This document shows, piece by piece, positions 16,397 to 52,182 of a stretch of 57,869 nt of DNA. The stretch comes from Patescibacteria group bacterium. Its GTDB lineage: Bacteria > Patescibacteriota > Minisyncoccia > Phycocordibacterales > CAIZLB01. The notes under the pieces were generated by a model. That model saw only the letters and a list, made by a program, of their open reading frames with translations. It was not told where the DNA came from and made no database searches. Location of the stretch: positions 16,105-73,973 of the forward strand of contig JAZKIM010000004.1 in NCBI GenBank assembly GCA_040384865.1. The letters run 5' to 3'. Each line of letters begins with the position of its first letter. Position 1 is the stretch's first letter. The translations under genes were made by a program, and so were the position numbers.

Positions 16397-16444
16397 CAAA
16401 TAGAAAAACGCATGTCTTTTTAAAGGCGCGCGTTTTTCTATTTG
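16397..16444 (+). terminator. long hairpin directly after tRNA-Gly(GCC)
   Basis: caaatagaaaaacgc (16397-16411) pairs perfectly with gcgtttttctatttg (16430-16444). That is a 15-bp stem with a U-rich 3' arm. Confidence 0.6.
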
Positions 16445-16566
16445 TTCAGGGAGTATTTAATTAAAGGTAAAAATATTTTTTGACTCAATATAACTATATT
16501 TGTTGATAAATATAGGTTGGCGAGTCCCTCCGTCTCTAAATTGTAGAAATATCTTTTGCACCAACC

Positions 16567-16575
16567 TGTGGATAA
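16567..16575 (-). promoter_or_regulatory. perfect DnaA-box consensus (TGTGGATAA = TTATCCACA on the other strand)
   Basis: Exact 9-mer in the AT-rich spacer. One-mismatch copy tgttgataa at 16501-16509. Another exact TTATCCACA at 14169-14177. Function untested. Confidence 0.3.
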
Positions 16576-16596
16576 CTCGGTGGATATGTGCATAAA

Positions 16597-16614
16597 AGAC
16601 AGAAATTTCTGTCT
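16597..16614. repeat. perfect 18-bp palindrome AGACAGAAATTTCTGTCT
   Basis: Read directly. It lies 22 nt from the DnaA-box-like site, inside a non-coding AT-rich spacer. Confidence 0.8.
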
Positions 16615-17138
16615 AATATAGAAATGATGAAAATTAGTAAAAAAATCAAAAAATGGCTCAGTAGGAACCTGTAAAGTAAAAGACGGTGACAAAACAAGGT
16701 CTTATATTGCATAATTATATGTTTCACGTGCTACATGACATGTTTTATCATTTTAGGTGAATGAAATGTTCCACGATTAACGTTTAAAATAAGAATGGCT
16801 TAAATTAAGGACATCTTAATAATTGGGTTAAGATGTTTCCAGTATGTTTGTGTTATTTATGAAACATGATTAATGGAATTGAGGTTATGTATCGTTAGGA
16901 TGAATTTGCCGCTGTAAAAACATAAGGGACATTGAAGGGAAATGTGTTAATAGATAGGAGATTTCGCGCTATGTAAAAGGACAAGGTGTTATTTAGATGG
17001 TAATAGGAGCGGGGGATTGGTCCTTGTTTCTTCACATCTATTGAAAAATATGTCTGAAAATTATTAATATAGGGCATATTAATTGAGCACGTAGCAATTG
17101 TGTGTTAAGCTACGGCTCTAGATTTTAGGTCTGGTCAT

Positions 17139-17211
17139 CGGGGTGTGGTGTAACGGCTAACATGCTTCACTTGGGCTGAAGTGACTCCGGGTTCGAATCC
17201 CGGCACCCCGA
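17139..17211 (+). tRNA. tRNA-Pro (anticodon UGG)
   Basis: Acceptor cggggtg/caccccg (the C1:G72 pair typical of bacterial tRNA-Pro), anticodon arm cttca-ctTGGgc-tgaag, T arm ccggg-ttcgaat-cccgg. Confidence 0.9.
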
Positions 17212-17335
17212 CAATTAACGGCTAGGACGAGTAGGGTAGCTATCTCGAGCGCTCGAGGTACTTCAAAAGTAGGGGAGAACTTGTTTATTTATGGGTAATA
17301 ATCTCTAGGTTTCTTATATTGGACATTTTTTGTAA

Positions 17336-17367
17336 AGAAAAACGCATCAGCCGAAGCTAATGCGTTT
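17336..17367 (-). terminator. rho-independent terminator of the GC-rich cassette gene
   Basis: The minus-strand RNA reads aaacgcat-t-agc-uucg-gcu-g-augcguuu followed by UUUUC UUU. It lies 57 nt downstream of the stop at 17424. Confidence 0.7.
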
Positions 17368-17423
17368 GTTGAAAGTTTTAAGAGGATTGAACTCTACGGT
17401 TACTTCACCGAGTGGGTTTACCA

Positions 17424-17933
17424 CTATTTACGAAACAGGTGCCAGTTTCCTGGCGACTTGTTGGACGACGAGTTTACGATCGAGTAAACCCTGTCCAAAT
17501 CAAATCGCAACCAGGTAACCAAACCGTAAGGCTTGATCCTTTCCGTGGAGAAGAGCTGGACCATCGTAATGAGGCCATCTGCACCAAAACAGTGCTGATC
17601 GGATCCCAGCTGCTCTGGCAAATCCGCATGCTGTTCTGCACACGAAACCAGTTCCCGCACGTTGGTCGTTTTCAGACCGCTCATCTCGGCATAGCGTTCA
17701 GGATCTTTGTAGTCCTGACTGCCACGGACGAGGACGAACTGCACCTGCTCCACTCCTTCTTCCCGTTGAGCGTAACTATGCTCGATATTGGAGAGCTGGA
17801 GCGGGCAAGAGGTCGGCATCTTGTCCGGGAACTTCTGCACGATCTCGCGCCAGTTCCTGCTGTGGTCGACGGTTGCCGAGAGTTCGATGATCTGGCGGTT
17901 TTTCTGCAAGTAGGCGTGATCGATTGTGTTCAT
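17424..17933 (-). CDS. hypothetical protein encoded in a GC-rich foreign cassette; possibly the frameshifted body of a macro-like domain gene
   Basis: The minus-strand ORF has normal amino-acid composition. The overlapping plus-strand 190-aa ORF is R/L-rich shadow. It has its own consensus promoter and terminator. The ATG is at 17933 (the track TTG start is at 17954). A TGA closes this frame just upstream, while a GTG-initiated N-terminal piece (18054 downward) sits in another frame. Confidence 0.55.
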   Translation of the reverse strand: MNTIDHAYLQKNRQIIELSATVDHSRNWREIVQKFPDKMPTSCPLQLSNIEHSYAQREEGVEQVQFVLVRGSQDYKDPERYAEMSGLKTTNVRELVSCAEQHADLPEQLGSDQHCFGADGLITMVQLFSTERIKPYGLVTWLRFDLDRVYSIVNSSSNKSPGNWHLFRK

Positions 17934-18082
17934 AAGGTGATTGGTTTTTCCCAAGTTTTCTCACACGCAACCCGACAGGGTTAGCTATAAATGTGGTGAT
18001 TATCAAGGGAGGGGAGGCTTCGAAGATTTCCTCCACCCCTTTGACGATCTCCACTGATTTGATGAACTTAACTTCTGAGATA

Positions 18083-18111
18083 ATTATAGCAATAAATATT
18101 CAACTTGTCAA
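18083..18111 (-). promoter_or_regulatory. consensus sigma70-type promoter reading leftward into the GC-rich cassette
   Basis: The minus strand reads TTGACA (18111-18106), then a 17-nt spacer, then TATAAT (18088-18083). Both hexamers match the consensus exactly. Confidence 0.7.
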
Positions 18112-18200
18112 TATACTAATCAATAAAATTGATATATTAGCATTAATATAGCTATATAAATAAGGATATAATAGAAAATATATTATATTCGTCAAAAATA

Positions 18201-18229
18201 TTGACAATATAAAAAGATATCGATATACT
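18201..18229 (+). promoter_or_regulatory. near-consensus promoter for the TrmB-family gene; predicts a leaderless mRNA
   Basis: TTGACA (18201-18206), 17-nt spacer, TATACT (18224-18229). The ATG at 18236 sits 7 nt after the -10 element, with no room for an SD sequence. Confidence 0.65.
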
Positions 18230-18235
18230 TACAAA

Positions 18236-18973
18236 ATGCAAGAAATCATCGAGAATTTGAAGTCTATAGGACTCGAAGACAAAGAAGCTAAGATATATGT
18301 AGCGTTACTCAAATTTGGGGAGGCAACAGTCGGAGATATTGCTGACGAGGCCGGGATTAAGCGCCCTACTACCTATGTTATTCTCGATGAATTGCGCAAG
18401 AAAGGCCTGGTGCTGAAGATTCCCCACGCCAAAAAGCAGGTCTTTCAAGCCAAGACTCCTGACGAGTTCTTCGAGCAGACTGTGGCTAATGTAAATCAAT
18501 TCGAGAAGATATTGCCAAAGCTTCGCTCCATGAATCCGTCCAAGAAAACCATTAAGACACTTTACTTCGAAGGAATCAATGGAATTAAAGAAGCTATGTA
18601 TTATCGAATTGAAGATCTCAAGAATTCGGTAGATGAAGGTTTCTGGGCAAAACATGTGGAAGTATCAAATAAAGTAGTAGAGGTACAAGACGAATGGATT
18701 AAGGCTTTTCAAAAATATAATATATCGATAGGTGGTGTAACTCCCGACCATGAATCAACTAGAATGTATGTTGAAAGGTATAAGGGTATTTACAAAGATT
18801 TCCTTTTCGCTCCTCTCGAGGATTATTCAGCAGATATCTCAATCGAAGTGACAAAGGAATTTGTGCGAATTATCGATGCCCATGATCTCAAGGCGATTAT
18901 CATCGAGAATCCCCGCGTTGTGTACGCACTGGGACAGATTTTCAAGTTAGCGAAAGAGAAGTATAAAAAATAA
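18236..18973 (+). CDS. TrmB-family winged-helix transcriptional regulator
   Basis: The N-terminus LEDKEAKIYVALLKFGEATVGDIADEAGIKRPTTYVILDELRKKGLV is the TrmB-type wHTH. The C-terminal domain of about 150 aa fits that family. Confidence 0.85.
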   Translation: MQEIIENLKSIGLEDKEAKIYVALLKFGEATVGDIADEAGIKRPTTYVILDELRKKGLVLKIPHAKKQVFQAKTPDEFFEQTVANVNQFEKILPKLRSMNPSKKTIKTLYFEGINGIKEAMYYRIEDLKNSVDEGFWAKHVEVSNKVVEVQDEWIKAFQKYNISIGGVTPDHESTRMYVERYKGIYKDFLFAPLEDYSADISIEVTKEFVRIIDAHDLKAIIIENPRVVYALGQIFKLAKEKYKK

Positions 18974-18978
18974 GATAA

Positions 18979-19746
18979 TTAGAGGTTTGTTAAAGACAAA
19001 TACTTTTCTTTTAATGTAATTTTACTTTTAAAACATAGTAGTAGTTCTCTTTTTTCTACACCTGATCCGTCTCTTAAAATAAATTTTGCGTAATTTCGTA
19101 TATTAATATCAACCACGGAAATCTTATCTTCATTGAGTAGTAGCTTCTGAAAATTCTTGAATCTTGCTACCTCTGTTTTAATTTTTTCTTTGATACCAAT
19201 TTCATCGAGATTAATACTGTCTAACAGCATCTCAAATTGTTTTATCAGCTCTTTCTCCTCGATGTAGCCACATTTACACTCCTTATCTTTAGATTTTGTA
19301 CATCCATAGTAGACGTAGCGTTGAGAGCTACCATTTTTGAGTTTCTTCCATTTCTCACAGGCTGATATACCAGACTGGCACAGTCCGCAGGCCATAAGTC
19401 TCGTAAAGGCAAATTCTTGATTTTCAACCCTGAGAATATTACTTTTTACTTGATCCTTGGCTAGGTCAAATAATTCTTTGGTGATAATCGGACTATGCTT
19501 GCCTGTATACCAGTTACCACTTGTGGTAGGGTACTCAAATATTCCGTAGTAGAAATGGTTTTCCAAAATTCTAAATATATTACCTAAGCTTAAATATTTT
19601 CCGTTTCTAGTTTTAAAATTTAAATCAAACCTAAGCCAATGATAGACTTTTCTACCTGACCATTTCTCGTAAGCAACTTTTTTGTAATCAGGAAGTTTTA
19701 CTTCTATTTCCATACTTAATTGATGACAAAACAACAAACCTTGCAT
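18979..19746 (-). pseudogene. large serine recombinase, C-terminal fragment only (recombinase domain, zinc ribbon and coiled coil; catalytic resolvase domain missing)
   Basis: ...YLSLGNIFRILENHFYYGIFEYP...GKHSPIITKELFDLAKDQV...LMACGLCQSGISA...YVYYGCTKSKDKECKCGYIEEKELIKQFE... matches the Recombinase plus Zn-ribbon parts. No S-R catalytic N-domain exists in any frame upstream, and that DNA is occupied by the opposite-strand ORF6N gene. Confidence 0.7.
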
Positions 19747-19851
19747 GGCTATGCAAGACTATCAATTTGTAGTATTGTCGCGTGGGGAATTCTTAGAAAA
19801 TTTAATATTTCTTGAGCGTATCTTCATGTCGGGTACAGTAAGATACTGTAG

Positions 19852-20373
19852 ATGAAAGAAGCCACAATTACAGAAATTCCTCTCAACATTGAACTTATAA
19901 AAGAGAAGATATATATCATCCGAGGGCAGAAGGTGATGTTCGACAGAGATCTCGCTATTCTGTATCAAGTCCCCACCAAACAACTCAATCGCGCGGTCAG
20001 GAGAAATCTCGATAGATTTCCAAACGATTTTATGTTTGAGCTCACAAAAGGTGAAATGGATAACTTGAAGTGCCAAATTGGCACTTCAAGTTATGGCGGC
20101 GCCCGAAAGCCGTCTTTGGCCTTTACGGAGCAAGGCATAGCGATGCTTTCCACTGTTTTGAACAGCAAGAGGGCTATACATGTAAATATTGAAATCATCA
20201 GGATATTCACCAAGCTTCGACAGATGATCGACGCTTACAAGGAACTGCGCGAAAAGGTGGAGGAAATGGAAAAGAATAGCGAGACAAATTTCAAGGAGAT
20301 ATTCAGGGTACTCAGGGCAATATTGGCAGAGGATGAGAAACCTAAAAGCAAGATAGGTTTCAGGCCTGAATAG
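19852..20373 (+). CDS. ORF6N-domain protein (phage/ICE-associated DNA-binding family)
   Basis: IRGQKVMFDRDLAILYQVPTKQLNRAVRRNLDRFPNDFMFELTKGE...GGARKPSLAFTEQGIAMLSTVLNSKRAI is the typical ORF6N core. Confidence 0.85.
   Translation: MKEATITEIPLNIELIKEKIYIIRGQKVMFDRDLAILYQVPTKQLNRAVRRNLDRFPNDFMFELTKGEMDNLKCQIGTSSYGGARKPSLAFTEQGIAMLSTVLNSKRAIHVNIEIIRIFTKLRQMIDAYKELREKVEEMEKNSETNFKEIFRVLRAILAEDEKPKSKIGFRPE
20062..20092. repeat. 31-nt palindrome (15-bp perfect arms around one central base) inside the ORF6N coding sequence
   Basis: aacttgaagtgccaa-a-ttggcacttcaagtt, read directly. Confidence 0.85.
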
Positions 20374-26454: not shown

Positions 26455-27222
26455 TTACTCTGCTAGGTTCCAAAAACTTTCAAACATGATTCGATATGAG
26501 TCTGCCAGAACATCGCTCTCGATCCATACTGCCAGTCCGTCGTAAAAGGAGACAATCAAAACGACATTGTTAAAAACGTCGATATTTACCTTGAGAGGAA
26601 ATTTTTCTAAAAATCTTGTTTCTCTGGAATATTCCTTGTCTAACTTTGAACTTTCTCTTGCTATGGATGAATGGTGGGCAAGCATTCTGCTTGTAGATTT
26701 ATTATTTACAAAAACTCTATTCCATTTTTTCCAATAAGATTCAGGAAAAAATTTGTACAGATCGTCGACTGATCCGACAAAAGATAATACTTCTGTATTT
26801 TTTGCATACTCGAGTTCTTTGTCATATGCATTCTTGATTTTTTCCATCCCTTCAAAATAGTTTAGGTTTATTTTACTTTTCTTTGAGCGCGGAATGTTTT
26901 CAAGGGTAGAAAGATTCGCCGATATTCTTTCTAGAACTTGTTGAGCTTTGTCAACGTTACTTTTTCCAATTTTTATAAGTTTGGTTGGAGATGCCGCTAA
27001 GAACTTTTTTCTTCGTTTTCTGGTTGCCTCAATAAGACCAAATTCTAAAAGTTTTTCCGTATCGTCATATATCTGTTGCCTGTTGACCCCCGTGGATTTT
27101 GAGAGTTCGAGAATTGATTGAATTCCATATTTGAGCAGATTCAGATATATGAGAGCTTGGTTCTTTGTAAGACCAAGATCGAACAAAGGCTCAAACTCTT
27201 TGCTGGTAAATTGGTGGGGCAT
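26455..27222 (-). CDS. TrmB-family winged-helix transcriptional regulator (second copy)
   Basis: LTKNQALIYLNLLKYGIQSILELSKSTGVNRQQIYDDTEKLLEFGLI wHTH. Size and layout match the gene at 18236-18973. Confidence 0.8.
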   Translation of the reverse strand: MPHQFTSKEFEPLFDLGLTKNQALIYLNLLKYGIQSILELSKSTGVNRQQIYDDTEKLLEFGLIEATRKRRKKFLAASPTKLIKIGKSNVDKAQQVLERISANLSTLENIPRSKKSKINLNYFEGMEKIKNAYDKELEYAKNTEVLSFVGSVDDLYKFFPESYWKKWNRVFVNNKSTSRMLAHHSSIARESSKLDKEYSRETRFLEKFPLKVNIDVFNNVVLIVSFYDGLAVWIESDVLADSYRIMFESFWNLAE

Positions 27223-51587: not shown

Positions 51588-51628
51588 AAAAACACCCTGC
51601 GCGGTTCAATTCCGCGCAGGGTGTTTTT
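51588..51628 (-). terminator. 17-bp perfect hairpin with a T-loop-like 7-nt loop; terminator of the 180-aa gene
   Basis: aaaaacaccctgcgcgg-TTCAATT-ccgcgcagggtgttttt. It lies 12 nt from the stop at 51640. Confidence 0.75.
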
Positions 51629-51639
51629 GATGAATGTTG

Positions 51640-52182
51640 TTAGAGGAGCGTTTTGGCGATACCTGCCCATCCGTTTTCTACGCGGTGGACGGCTTGATGG
51701 CAGCGTCTTGTTTTCGACGGCTGCTTGGTGGACATGATGTACAAAGTTCCGACCACAGGGAGTTTGTCGGCGATATCTTCCCGCGTAAGGAGAGCGTGTG
51801 TTACGCCAATGCGGTGAAGGTCAGCGCTGATCGTTCCGACCCTATAAAATCGAAGGTCCGCCGGTTTCATCCCGCTTAAACGCAAGATGTCAGATGTTTC
51901 AACCCATCGACGATCGTACGGTTCTTTTCCTTTGGCTCCGATGAGTAGCACTCGATTGAAGCACCGGTTTGCGACGATTTGACGAAGGAAACAAAATGCT
52001 CCGCTAGTGGCGCGCCGACCTTTCGAACGGGGATTGTACACGGCGGAATGATGGCTCATTTCACTCGGGGAAATGATGGGGCCATCAAGGAAGACGGCAA
52101 GGATTTTCGGTATTTTCATAACTTTTCTAAGGGGTTCTTTTTGGTTGGGGTGGTTGTTTTTGGTCTGATAGAAAATATACAT
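51640..52182 (-). CDS. hypothetical protein in the GC-rich insert (weak, unverified resemblance to HAD/NT5C-like layout)
   Basis: 180-aa ORF, with an alternative ATG at 52119 (MKIPKILAVFLDGPII...). It uses CGC/CGG/CGT/AGG Arg codons, unlike the host genes. A strong terminator follows. The plus-strand ORFs here look like shadows. Confidence 0.6.
   Translation of the reverse strand: MYIFYQTKNNHPNQKEPLRKVMKIPKILAVFLDGPIISPSEMSHHSAVYNPRSKGRRATSGAFCFLRQIVANRCFNRVLLIGAKGKEPYDRRWVETSDILRLSGMKPADLRFYRVGTISADLHRIGVTHALLTREDIADKLPVVGTLYIMSTKQPSKTRRCHQAVHRVENGWAGIAKTLL

Follow-up and report, generated by a model that had tools for sequence, protein, structure and literature searches.

How a GC-rich gene came to sit in an AT-rich genome is the question raised by a short block in the DNA of a Patescibacteria group bacterium. 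The stretch analyzed here (the window) comprises 57,869 nucleotides (nt) of contig JAZKIM010000004.1. Its genes are those usually seen in Parcubacteria, and the best named matches of its CCA-adding enzyme are in Candidatus Parcubacteria and Paceibacterota. On its minus strand, a small gene lies between a consensus promoter and an intrinsic terminator, next to a divergent gene for a TrmB-family winged-helix regulator. An initial annotation had described promoter, gene and terminator as one self-contained foreign cassette, recently acquired and wired for strong expression. With a probability of roughly 0.6, we read the block instead as the payload of a modular accessory unit of Parcubacteria, in which a conserved frame of TrmB gene, promoter and 3′ motif surrounds swappable, GC-enriched cargo.

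A proposed payload slot and its expression frame

The comparison that carries this reading is a BLASTN search of window positions 17213–19850 against the fetched TrmB-orthologue loci (designated by L numbers), together with L001 and L003. In L008 and L007, similarity spans the TrmB side of the locus, stops, and resumes around the end of the coding sequence (CDS) (Table 1). Between these segments, positions 17429–18082, comprising leader and CDS, are replaced by unrelated sequence in both loci. Judged from these alignments, a conserved expression frame surrounds a replaceable payload at 17429–18082. Promoter and terminator are parts of the frame, not of a foreign block, because they are conserved with the L008 and L007 loci, which carry other cargo. 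Together with the 3′ untranslated region (UTR), they are AT-rich, unlike the coding block. The claim of a single foreign cassette therefore fails, since its flanks are conserved and only the interior is swapped. L001 shares the cargo gene, and its promoter, leader, terminator and regulator all differ from those of the window.

Gene content that varies between homologous loci, as seen here for the window, L008 and L007, is a feature of hammerhead-punctuated variable gene arrays. Every fetched TrmB-orthologue locus reaching far enough upstream (L005, L007, L008, L010, L011 and L012) pairs TrmB divergently with one to four small genes lacking a Pfam match. When cargo proteins were compared with one another (blastp, E ≤ 1), the window and L001 formed the only significant pair, alongside two weak within-locus pairs (E ~0.05). 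Wherever the TrmB gene is complete, the cargo next to it exceeds it in GC content and in GC content at third codon positions (GC3); L001, which has only part of TrmB, shows the same by a small margin. In other relatives, the TrmB–cargo modules lie between the genes for trigger factor and RsmE, or between HU and tRNA-Gly, with no recombinase. The window carries a second TrmB-family paralogue (26455–27222, minus strand; PF01978, E = 7e-12) between trigger factor and RsmE, the site at which L007 and L011 hold the module; here it has neither cargo genes nor the palindrome described below. Phd/YefM-like and RelB/YafQ-like pairs occur near the L007 and L009 modules, and a HicA-like toxin fragment, recognized by eye, is convergent with the cargo gene in L001 (1169–1327, minus strand). 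The neighborhoods of these modules look rich in accessory genes.

The regulator is well defined, with a PF01978 match at E = 1e-15 (57.8 bits against a cut-off of 25.6) and 158 homologues at E ≤ 1e-10; the named ones come from Parcubacteria/Patescibacteria, and the best are 81–82% identical. The cargo promoter scores 12/12, has a TG extension and, as initially reported, is a perfect TTGACA-N17-TATAAT. It is the only such element in the window, and 0/100 shuffles produced one. The intergenic region also holds a palindrome, found once in the window, whose core (TGTCAATAT-3 nt-TGA) is unchanged in an intergenic alignment of six TrmB-orthologue loci. This palindrome is a candidate operator that TrmB may bind. 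A TrmB winged helix-turn-helix domain in the divergent gene and an operator-like palindrome in the shared intergenic region are features of TrmB-regulated divergent operons. Because the cargo promoter lies ~80 nt from the palindrome shared by six loci, it is probably gated and not constitutively strong. Of the proposed wiring for strong expression, the consensus promoter stands, as part of a resident TrmB-linked frame.

At the 3′ boundary of the slot lies a conserved RNA motif, present in eight copies in six loci (window, L001, L005, L007, and twice each in L008 and L010). Covariance model R1, built from six copies, picked up the other two (E = 1e-9 and 9e-5). Its first hairpin, H1, reads AGUGG-UAAAC-CCACU in the window, with the UAG stop codon (17426–17424) in the 5′ strand and an in-frame UAA in the loop. 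H1 is 97.5% paired across copies, and 3/5 pairs show compensatory changes. The second hairpin, H2 (CGGU-GAAGUA-ACCG in the window; 4–8 base pairs (bp) across copies), is followed by a variable hairpin and then by AAAACUUUC, which would pair with the H2 loop to form a pseudoknot. This pairing of the loop with a downstream AAAACUYUC covaries, with GAAG/CUUU in three copies versus GAGAG/CUCUC in four. In all eight copies, the stop codon falls inside or just 5′ of the 5′ strand of H1. Read-through of the stop was considered and set aside, as UAG, then UGG, then UAA would add only two residues. A conserved small antisense ORF (open reading frame) at 17360–17518 (plus strand) is likewise accounted for by nucleotide conservation of the motif.

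Every cargo that was checked has the motif at its 3′ end; internal cargo genes have it too in L008 and L010, and lack it in L007. After the motif comes a terminator if the cargo gene is the last one, and a hammerhead ribozyme if it is internal. In the window, the stem-loop and T-run terminator noted initially was confirmed, and its stem differs from that of L008 by compensatory changes (GCAUUAGC/GCUGAUGC versus GCACCUGC/GCUGGUGC). Motif, leader and CDS match no family in Rfam 15: across 16400–18300 nothing relevant appears at E ≤ 10, and only tRNAs reach the gathering score. The motif copies in related loci are likewise without an Rfam match. The 5′ leader (fold z = −3.1) has no BLASTN match in any fetched locus, including L001, L007 and L008. 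In L008 (1283–1175 and 575–480, minus strand) and L012 (~4990–4730, minus strand), cargo genes are preceded by a different 5′ leader of ~80 nt, conserved and structured (GUUGAGUYUGGAAG...ACUCAAC; fold z = −4.5), which has no Rfam match and is not found in the window.

Hammerhead_3 matches in Rfam scans of the related loci score 35–49 bits (E = 7e-8 to 6e-4). A strict regular expression requiring CUGANGA and GAAA cores, an NUH cleavage site, a covarying 7-bp stem I and a 4-bp stem II confirms five distinct hammerheads, or seven when the identical L012, L013 and L014 copies are included. Those between cargo genes presumably cut the transcript into single-gene RNAs. The window has no hammerhead, neither at E ≤ 10 in 16400–18300 by Rfam nor anywhere by regular expression, because its slot holds one gene. 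In L010 (4187–7112, minus strand), a hammerhead 3′ of the first small cargo is followed by NAPRTase_N, a weak SLOG-like match and methyltransferase genes, which may mean that some payloads bear on the metabolism of NAD or nucleotides.

These elements suggest how the unit may work. The frame consists of the TrmB gene, a back-to-back promoter region with the palindrome, a sigma-70 consensus promoter facing away, the pseudoknotted 3′ motif and the terminator. The slot, from the −10 box to the stop codon, takes one or several small GC-enriched genes that are wholly different between close loci. TrmB may bind the palindrome and the TTGAC repeats (18095–18125), holding a very strong cargo promoter silent in the absence of a signal. 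Hammerheads would cut multi-cargo transcripts, and the structured cargo RNA would end in the 3′ motif, which may act at the RNA level and be unwound by terminating ribosomes. Cargo exchange could proceed by recombination, with the promoter/TrmB side and the 3′ motif as arms. Our best guess is that the payload has an accessory role in genetic conflict (phage, mobile element or host interaction), as is suspected for other hammerhead-flanked gene sets.

Table 1. Positions of the features discussed, in window coordinates unless a related locus is named.
Feature	Position	Strand	Basis or remark
Cargo gene, 169-aa soluble ORFan	17424–17933	−	GC 0.53, GC3 0.69; one homologue
Cargo promoter, TTGACA-N17-(TG)n-TATAAT	18083–18111	−	part of frame; L008 homology breakpoint at 18083
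5′ leader, ~145 nt, predicted hairpins 18054–17993 and 17990–17961	17934–18082	−	lineage-specific
Long imperfect RNA hairpin in CDS 3′ end (predicted)	17449–17515	−	RNAalifold consensus with L001
Conserved 3′ RNA motif	17371–17426	−	covariance model R1, covariation
Intrinsic terminator of cargo transcript; 12-bp stem (17367–17340), loop UUCG, T-run	17333–17367	−	homologous to L008 terminator
TrmB-family winged-helix regulator, 245 aa, divergent from cargo	18236–18973	+	Pfam PF01978
Palindrome TTGTCAATATTTTTGAC(G/A)A, overlapping the TrmB promoter −35	18189–18207		candidate TrmB operator
tRNA-Pro(UGG), landmark adjoining the 2.5-kb unit	17139–17212	+	ARAGORN, Rfam
Left imperfect direct repeat, ~34 nt (GTAGCTATCTCGAGCGCTCGAGGTACTTCAAAAG), att-like boundary	17236–17269	+	L003 comparison
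Right imperfect direct repeat (GTAGTATTGTCGCGTGGGGAATTCTTAGAAAAT)	19769–19801	+	L003 comparison
5′-truncated large serine recombinase, 255 aa	18979–19746	−	PF07508 + PF13408
Similarity to L008 (TrmB 82% identical)	18083–18973 and 17328–17428		−10 box through TrmB; last sense codon through terminator
Similarity to L007 (TrmB 75% identical)	18168–18972 and 17366–17429
Similarity to L001 (TrmB ~36%, helix-turn-helix only)	17394–17933		CDS + 30 nt of 3′ motif
Hammerhead_3, L008	between both cargo genes		Rfam
Hammerhead_3, L007	between cargo genes		two by Rfam, a third by regular expression
Hammerhead_3, L005	between both cargo genes		Rfam
Hammerhead_3, L012	between cargo genes		Rfam, 49.1 bits, above gathering score
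Hammerhead_3, L010, second TrmB locus	3′ of first cargo gene		Rfam
Hammerhead, L010, first TrmB locus	between its two cargo genes		by eye

The coding block and its product

The composition of the block was described correctly. The cargo ORF (510 nt) has a GC content of 0.531 versus a window mean of 0.413, and a sliding-window scan of all 57.9 kb places the richest 510-nt stretch at a start of 17389–17408 (0.537). Its GC3 of 0.69 compares with a mean of 0.376 (standard deviation 0.051, maximum 0.54) among the 46 other window ORFs of at least 120 amino acids (aa), giving z = 6.1. Arginine codons (CGC 3, AGG 3, CGG 2, CGT 2, CGA 1) agree with those listed initially. The accompanying claim of nearly exclusive CGA usage in host genes is true of translation genes (EF-G, EF-Tu, ribosomal proteins), to which CGA-only usage is limited, and is overstated for most other ORFs of the window, which mix CGA, AGA, CGT and CGC. 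EF-G on one side and a 260-aa gene on the other enclose a second composition outlier, a 180-aa ORF at 51640–52182 (minus strand; GC 0.506, GC3 0.54). This ORF is without a Pfam match and has no TrmB gene close by, its RNA folding z is −0.1, and a strong, bidirectional-looking terminator hairpin lies at ~51588–51628.

The cargo ORF is a genuine protein-coding gene under purifying selection, as follows from its differences to the L001 homologue, which fall 27/18/57 on codon positions 1/2/3, and from a ratio of nonsynonymous to synonymous substitution rates (dN/dS) of 0.17 (dN 0.14, dS 0.82). Nucleotide similarity to L001 opens precisely at ATG 17933. Because conservation starts there, the product has 169 aa, not the 170–176 first proposed; a start at TTG 17954 (176 aa) or farther upstream is disfavored. 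Known non-coding RNAs (GOLLD, ROOL, OLE, RNase P and the like), suspected from a GC-rich block beside tRNAs, were rejected on the blank Rfam result and a substitution pattern that is that of a CDS. A 190-aa ORF on the opposite strand (17412–17984, plus) overlaps the cargo gene. Stops interrupt it in L001, which marks it as a side effect of GC-rich sequence and a potential trap for gene callers.

The product (19.5 kDa, isoelectric point 6.1) is computed to be hydrophilic and soluble with no transmembrane segment, and is predicted to be cytoplasmic. Its sole homologue among 5.8 billion protein clusters is P0002, encoded on L001, a 1.3-kb ENA contig; the protein space searched totals ~15 billion proteins. 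A full phmmer/HMMER scan of 1.84 billion representatives added only two giant repeat proteins (a Sushi protein and a HYR/SprB protein), and these matches are spurious and repeat-inflated. In line with the early remark that no motif could be named, there is no profile match in Pfam, NCBIfam, PHROGs, PADLOC or PDB sequences. The PDB profile search gave nothing below E = 0.026, and that match lies in a non-conserved N-terminal extension of P0002. A likeness of TVDHSRNWREIVQKFPDKMPTSC to TVDYGKSISELVGNRFPNSHVSC in L008 (BLASTP E = 0.02, hhalign probability 1%) was treated as unrelated. A C-terminal likeness to the L005 paralogues (VFVKPRKQ), a caspase-like QHCFG and further motif guesses were unsupported.

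The coding RNA itself appears structured. Against dinucleotide shuffles, the cargo CDS folds with z = −4.0 and −5.3 in two implementations and the L001 homologue with −3.4; TrmB genes are near 0. In the predicted hairpin at the 3′ end of the CDS, all stem changes relative to L001 preserve pairing, and the remaining changes fall in the loop and bulge. It coincides with a drop in dS to 0.29 in the last 44 codons versus 0.9–1.6 elsewhere (Fisher p = 0.004). RNA structure may partially explain the high GC of the cargo, and only partially because it is not universal among cargo genes.

Probable integration beside tRNA-Pro and rival readings

The payload and its frame sit in a 2.5-kb unit (cargo, TrmB, recombinase) adjoining tRNA-Pro. 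This unit is absent from L003, the closest relative (CCA enzyme 81% identical), in which tRNA-Arg, tRNA-Gly and tRNA-Pro are followed directly by the ORF6N-domain gene; the tRNA cluster is syntenic in L003, L005 and L012. Because both flanks of the unit (17213–17258 and 19769–19845) match one overlapping L003 stretch (9045–9001 and 9022–8944), ~34 nt are present twice around the insert. The recombinase ORF starts 23 nt from the right repeat and retains only the Recombinase and Zn-ribbon domains, the N-terminal catalytic resolvase domain being absent; no other fetched locus has a homologue of it. Flanked by repeats at tRNA-Pro and carrying a decayed recombinase, the unit is probably an integrated element that is now immobile. 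The initial description of one gene that has a strong promoter and a terminator of its own is borne out, and the DNA that holds it is missing from the closest relative. A recent acquisition is doubtful, given repeats that are ~60–70% alike by eye, a truncated recombinase, and a dS of 0.8 with high GC3 kept in both homologues.

Two neighbors of the unit have features of their own. The ORF6N-domain gene (19852–20373, plus strand) has the most structured RNA of all those tested, a perfect 17-nt palindrome (20060–20094) and an inverted repeat (19950–19972/20262–20284). The ~740 nt between tRNA-Gly(GCC) and tRNA-Pro (16398–17138) are AT-rich (33% GC) with no convincing ORF, and could represent a regulatory spacer or the remains of a gene; the corresponding gap in L005 holds a UPF0102 gene.

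Several points weigh against the reading as a modular payload. The window itself lacks a hammerhead, and its tie to ribozyme arrays consists of shared flanks and TrmB orthology. Roughly ten metagenomic contigs, a number of which are short, supply the comparison. The RNA structures, cleavage by the ribozymes, the activity of the promoter and the binding of TrmB are predictions throughout, and AlphaFold2, given a two-sequence alignment, yielded no usable fold (predicted local distance difference test 38.8, predicted template-modeling score 0.32). High GC3 that persists through a dS of 0.8 in AT-rich hosts has no explanation. Cargo RNA structure is not universal, with L008_c1, L011_c1 and L012_c1 at z near 0, and the unrelated neighboring ORF6N gene reaches z = −6.6. 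Finally, the direct repeats are imperfect, and a deletion in the L003 lineage could give the same picture.

A bolder interpretation, which we regard as unlikely, is that these loci represent an undescribed cassette system of the candidate phyla radiation (CPR) whose unit of exchange and function is a processed, highly structured RNA. If so, hammerheads would release single-gene RNAs, each ending in a stop-codon-embedding pseudoknot. The motif would tie the end of translation to the further fate of the RNA (stability, circularization or recognition by a partner protein) and would double as a recombination anchor for cargo swapping. GC richness would then have been selected for RNA structure and would not be the trace of a donor genome.

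Somewhat less likely is a lone, horizontally acquired ORFan cassette, in which a donor richer in GC supplied promoter, gene and terminator as one piece, outside any larger system. The outlying GC3, the absence of the block from the closest relative, the recombinase remnant and repeats close by, and a homologue on an unrelated contig would all fit. It is contradicted by the AT-rich promoter, 3′UTR and terminator, which are shared with loci carrying other cargo, and by L001, which has the CDS without the window's promoter or terminator. The search for a donor lineage, proposed at the outset, also came back empty: protein-pattern searches of genome and viral contigs and degenerate DNA patterns run on genome, viral and metagenome contigs found no donor or related DNA, and tblastn of the cargo against phages and plasmids found nothing.

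We hold it doubtful, more so than the lone cassette, that cargo moves site-specifically as in integrons, with the 3′ hairpin motif as the recombination site, recognized as folded DNA. Such movement would account for a stop-codon-containing motif behind every cargo checked, for its presence after internal genes in L008 and L010, and for homology breakpoints exactly at its 5′ edge. Pfam searches, however, found no integron integrase or other intact recombinase beside the arrays: the window's only recombinase is the truncated serine type, and the related loci have none. The attC core sites R″/R′ (RYYYAAC...GTTRRRY) are absent from the 3′ motif sequences; the L008 leader has the reverse order, GTTGAGT...ACTCAAC. 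Moreover, the internal cargo genes of L007 lack the motif, the 5′ breakpoint lies in the promoter and not at a second motif copy, and the pseudoknot covariation better suits a role at the RNA level.

A structured RNA as the main product, with the ORF incidental or the RNA serving a second role, would explain both GC and folding, and we consider it improbable. The folding of the CDS, its conserved low-dS hairpin and the conserved 3′ motif are in its favor. The third-position bias and a dN/dS of 0.17 across the whole ORF nevertheless indicate selection on the protein, no Rfam family matches, and several other cargo genes are not unusually structured. An assembly chimera, in which DNA of an organism richer in GC was wrongly built into a Parcubacteria contig, would produce the sharp composition steps at each end of 17429–18082 but is very improbable, as the independent assembly L001 has the gene in AT-rich flanks with its own terminator, the steps match functional boundaries (−10 box, stop codon) at which the independent L007 and L008 also switch cargo, and the 3′ motif runs unbroken from the CDS.

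Comparison with known systems

The modular payload reading gains context from bacterial hammerhead and twister ribozymes, whose grouping around variable genes, most of them without annotation, in the vicinity of integrases has been on record for over ten years (PMC3088659, PMC6765202). Perreault et al. (2011, PMC3088659) describe single genes, or short runs of genes, that are flanked by multiple hammerheads, lie near integrases and vary in identity; one such case, in Agrobacterium tumefaciens, is a region with ardA, marR and an integrase. The purpose of this arrangement is described as still open (PMC6765202). A full-text literature search found no paper linking hammerhead ribozymes with Parcubacteria or the CPR.

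Like these blocks, the loci studied here place small variable genes on one RNA, separated by hammerheads, near a winged helix-turn-helix regulator (MarR-type in those blocks) and a recombinase. L005, L007, L008, L010 and L012 match directly, each with an intact-core hammerhead flanking same-strand genes. The window shares the winged helix-turn-helix regulator (TrmB) and a serine recombinase remnant within 1 kb, and differs in its single gene, the absence of a ribozyme and its CPR host. The orthologous TrmB, the conserved promoter frame and the shared pseudoknot motif are further differences, absent from the available portions of the published descriptions.

Integron cassettes resemble the unit in their fixed promoter, exchangeable and mostly unknown small genes, and a hairpin element near the stop codon. 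Here, by contrast, there is no IntI, attI or attC core, the cargo brings its own leader, ribozymes instead of attC separate the cargo, and the regulator is TrmB, not a LexA-controlled IntI. tRNA-adjacent integrative islands are similar in that they carry accessory cargo between direct repeats, have a recombinase at one end and correspond to an empty site in a relative. The present unit is unlike them in its size of just 2.5 kb, in a serine-type recombinase without a catalytic domain where an intact integrase would be expected, and in the equivalent modules of relatives, which lie elsewhere in the same neighborhood without a recombinase.

The 3′ motif has parallels in drum, DUF3800-I, skipping-rope and FuFi-1, reported as conserved RNA motifs that precede terminators and are tied to neighboring genes (Weinberg et al. 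2017, PMC5737381). All are compact, conserved, linked to a gene neighborhood and located directly before an intrinsic terminator, not in a 5′UTR. The motif described here differs in that the Rfam models do not match it, it overlaps the stop codon, and a hammerhead may follow in place of the terminator. Together with a two-member protein family, this candidate structured RNA without an Rfam match adds to the elements specific to the CPR.

The locus also advises caution, in that a GC-rich ORFan in an AT-rich genome need not be a recent import, because payload slots have raised GC across loci, and in the gene studied here this accompanies conserved RNA structure. Through the slot, ribozyme gene arrays that have had no explanation are linked with a dedicated regulator and with an RNA element not in Rfam. 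The locus family offers a compact, comparable arrangement of one regulator, one promoter frame and one 3′ motif with payloads that change between close relatives, and this combination makes the question experimentally approachable. Set beside the known systems, the locus is best described as a single-payload, ribozyme-free form of a ribozyme-associated variable gene module, new in its CPR genome, its dedicated regulator and its Rfam-less RNA motif.

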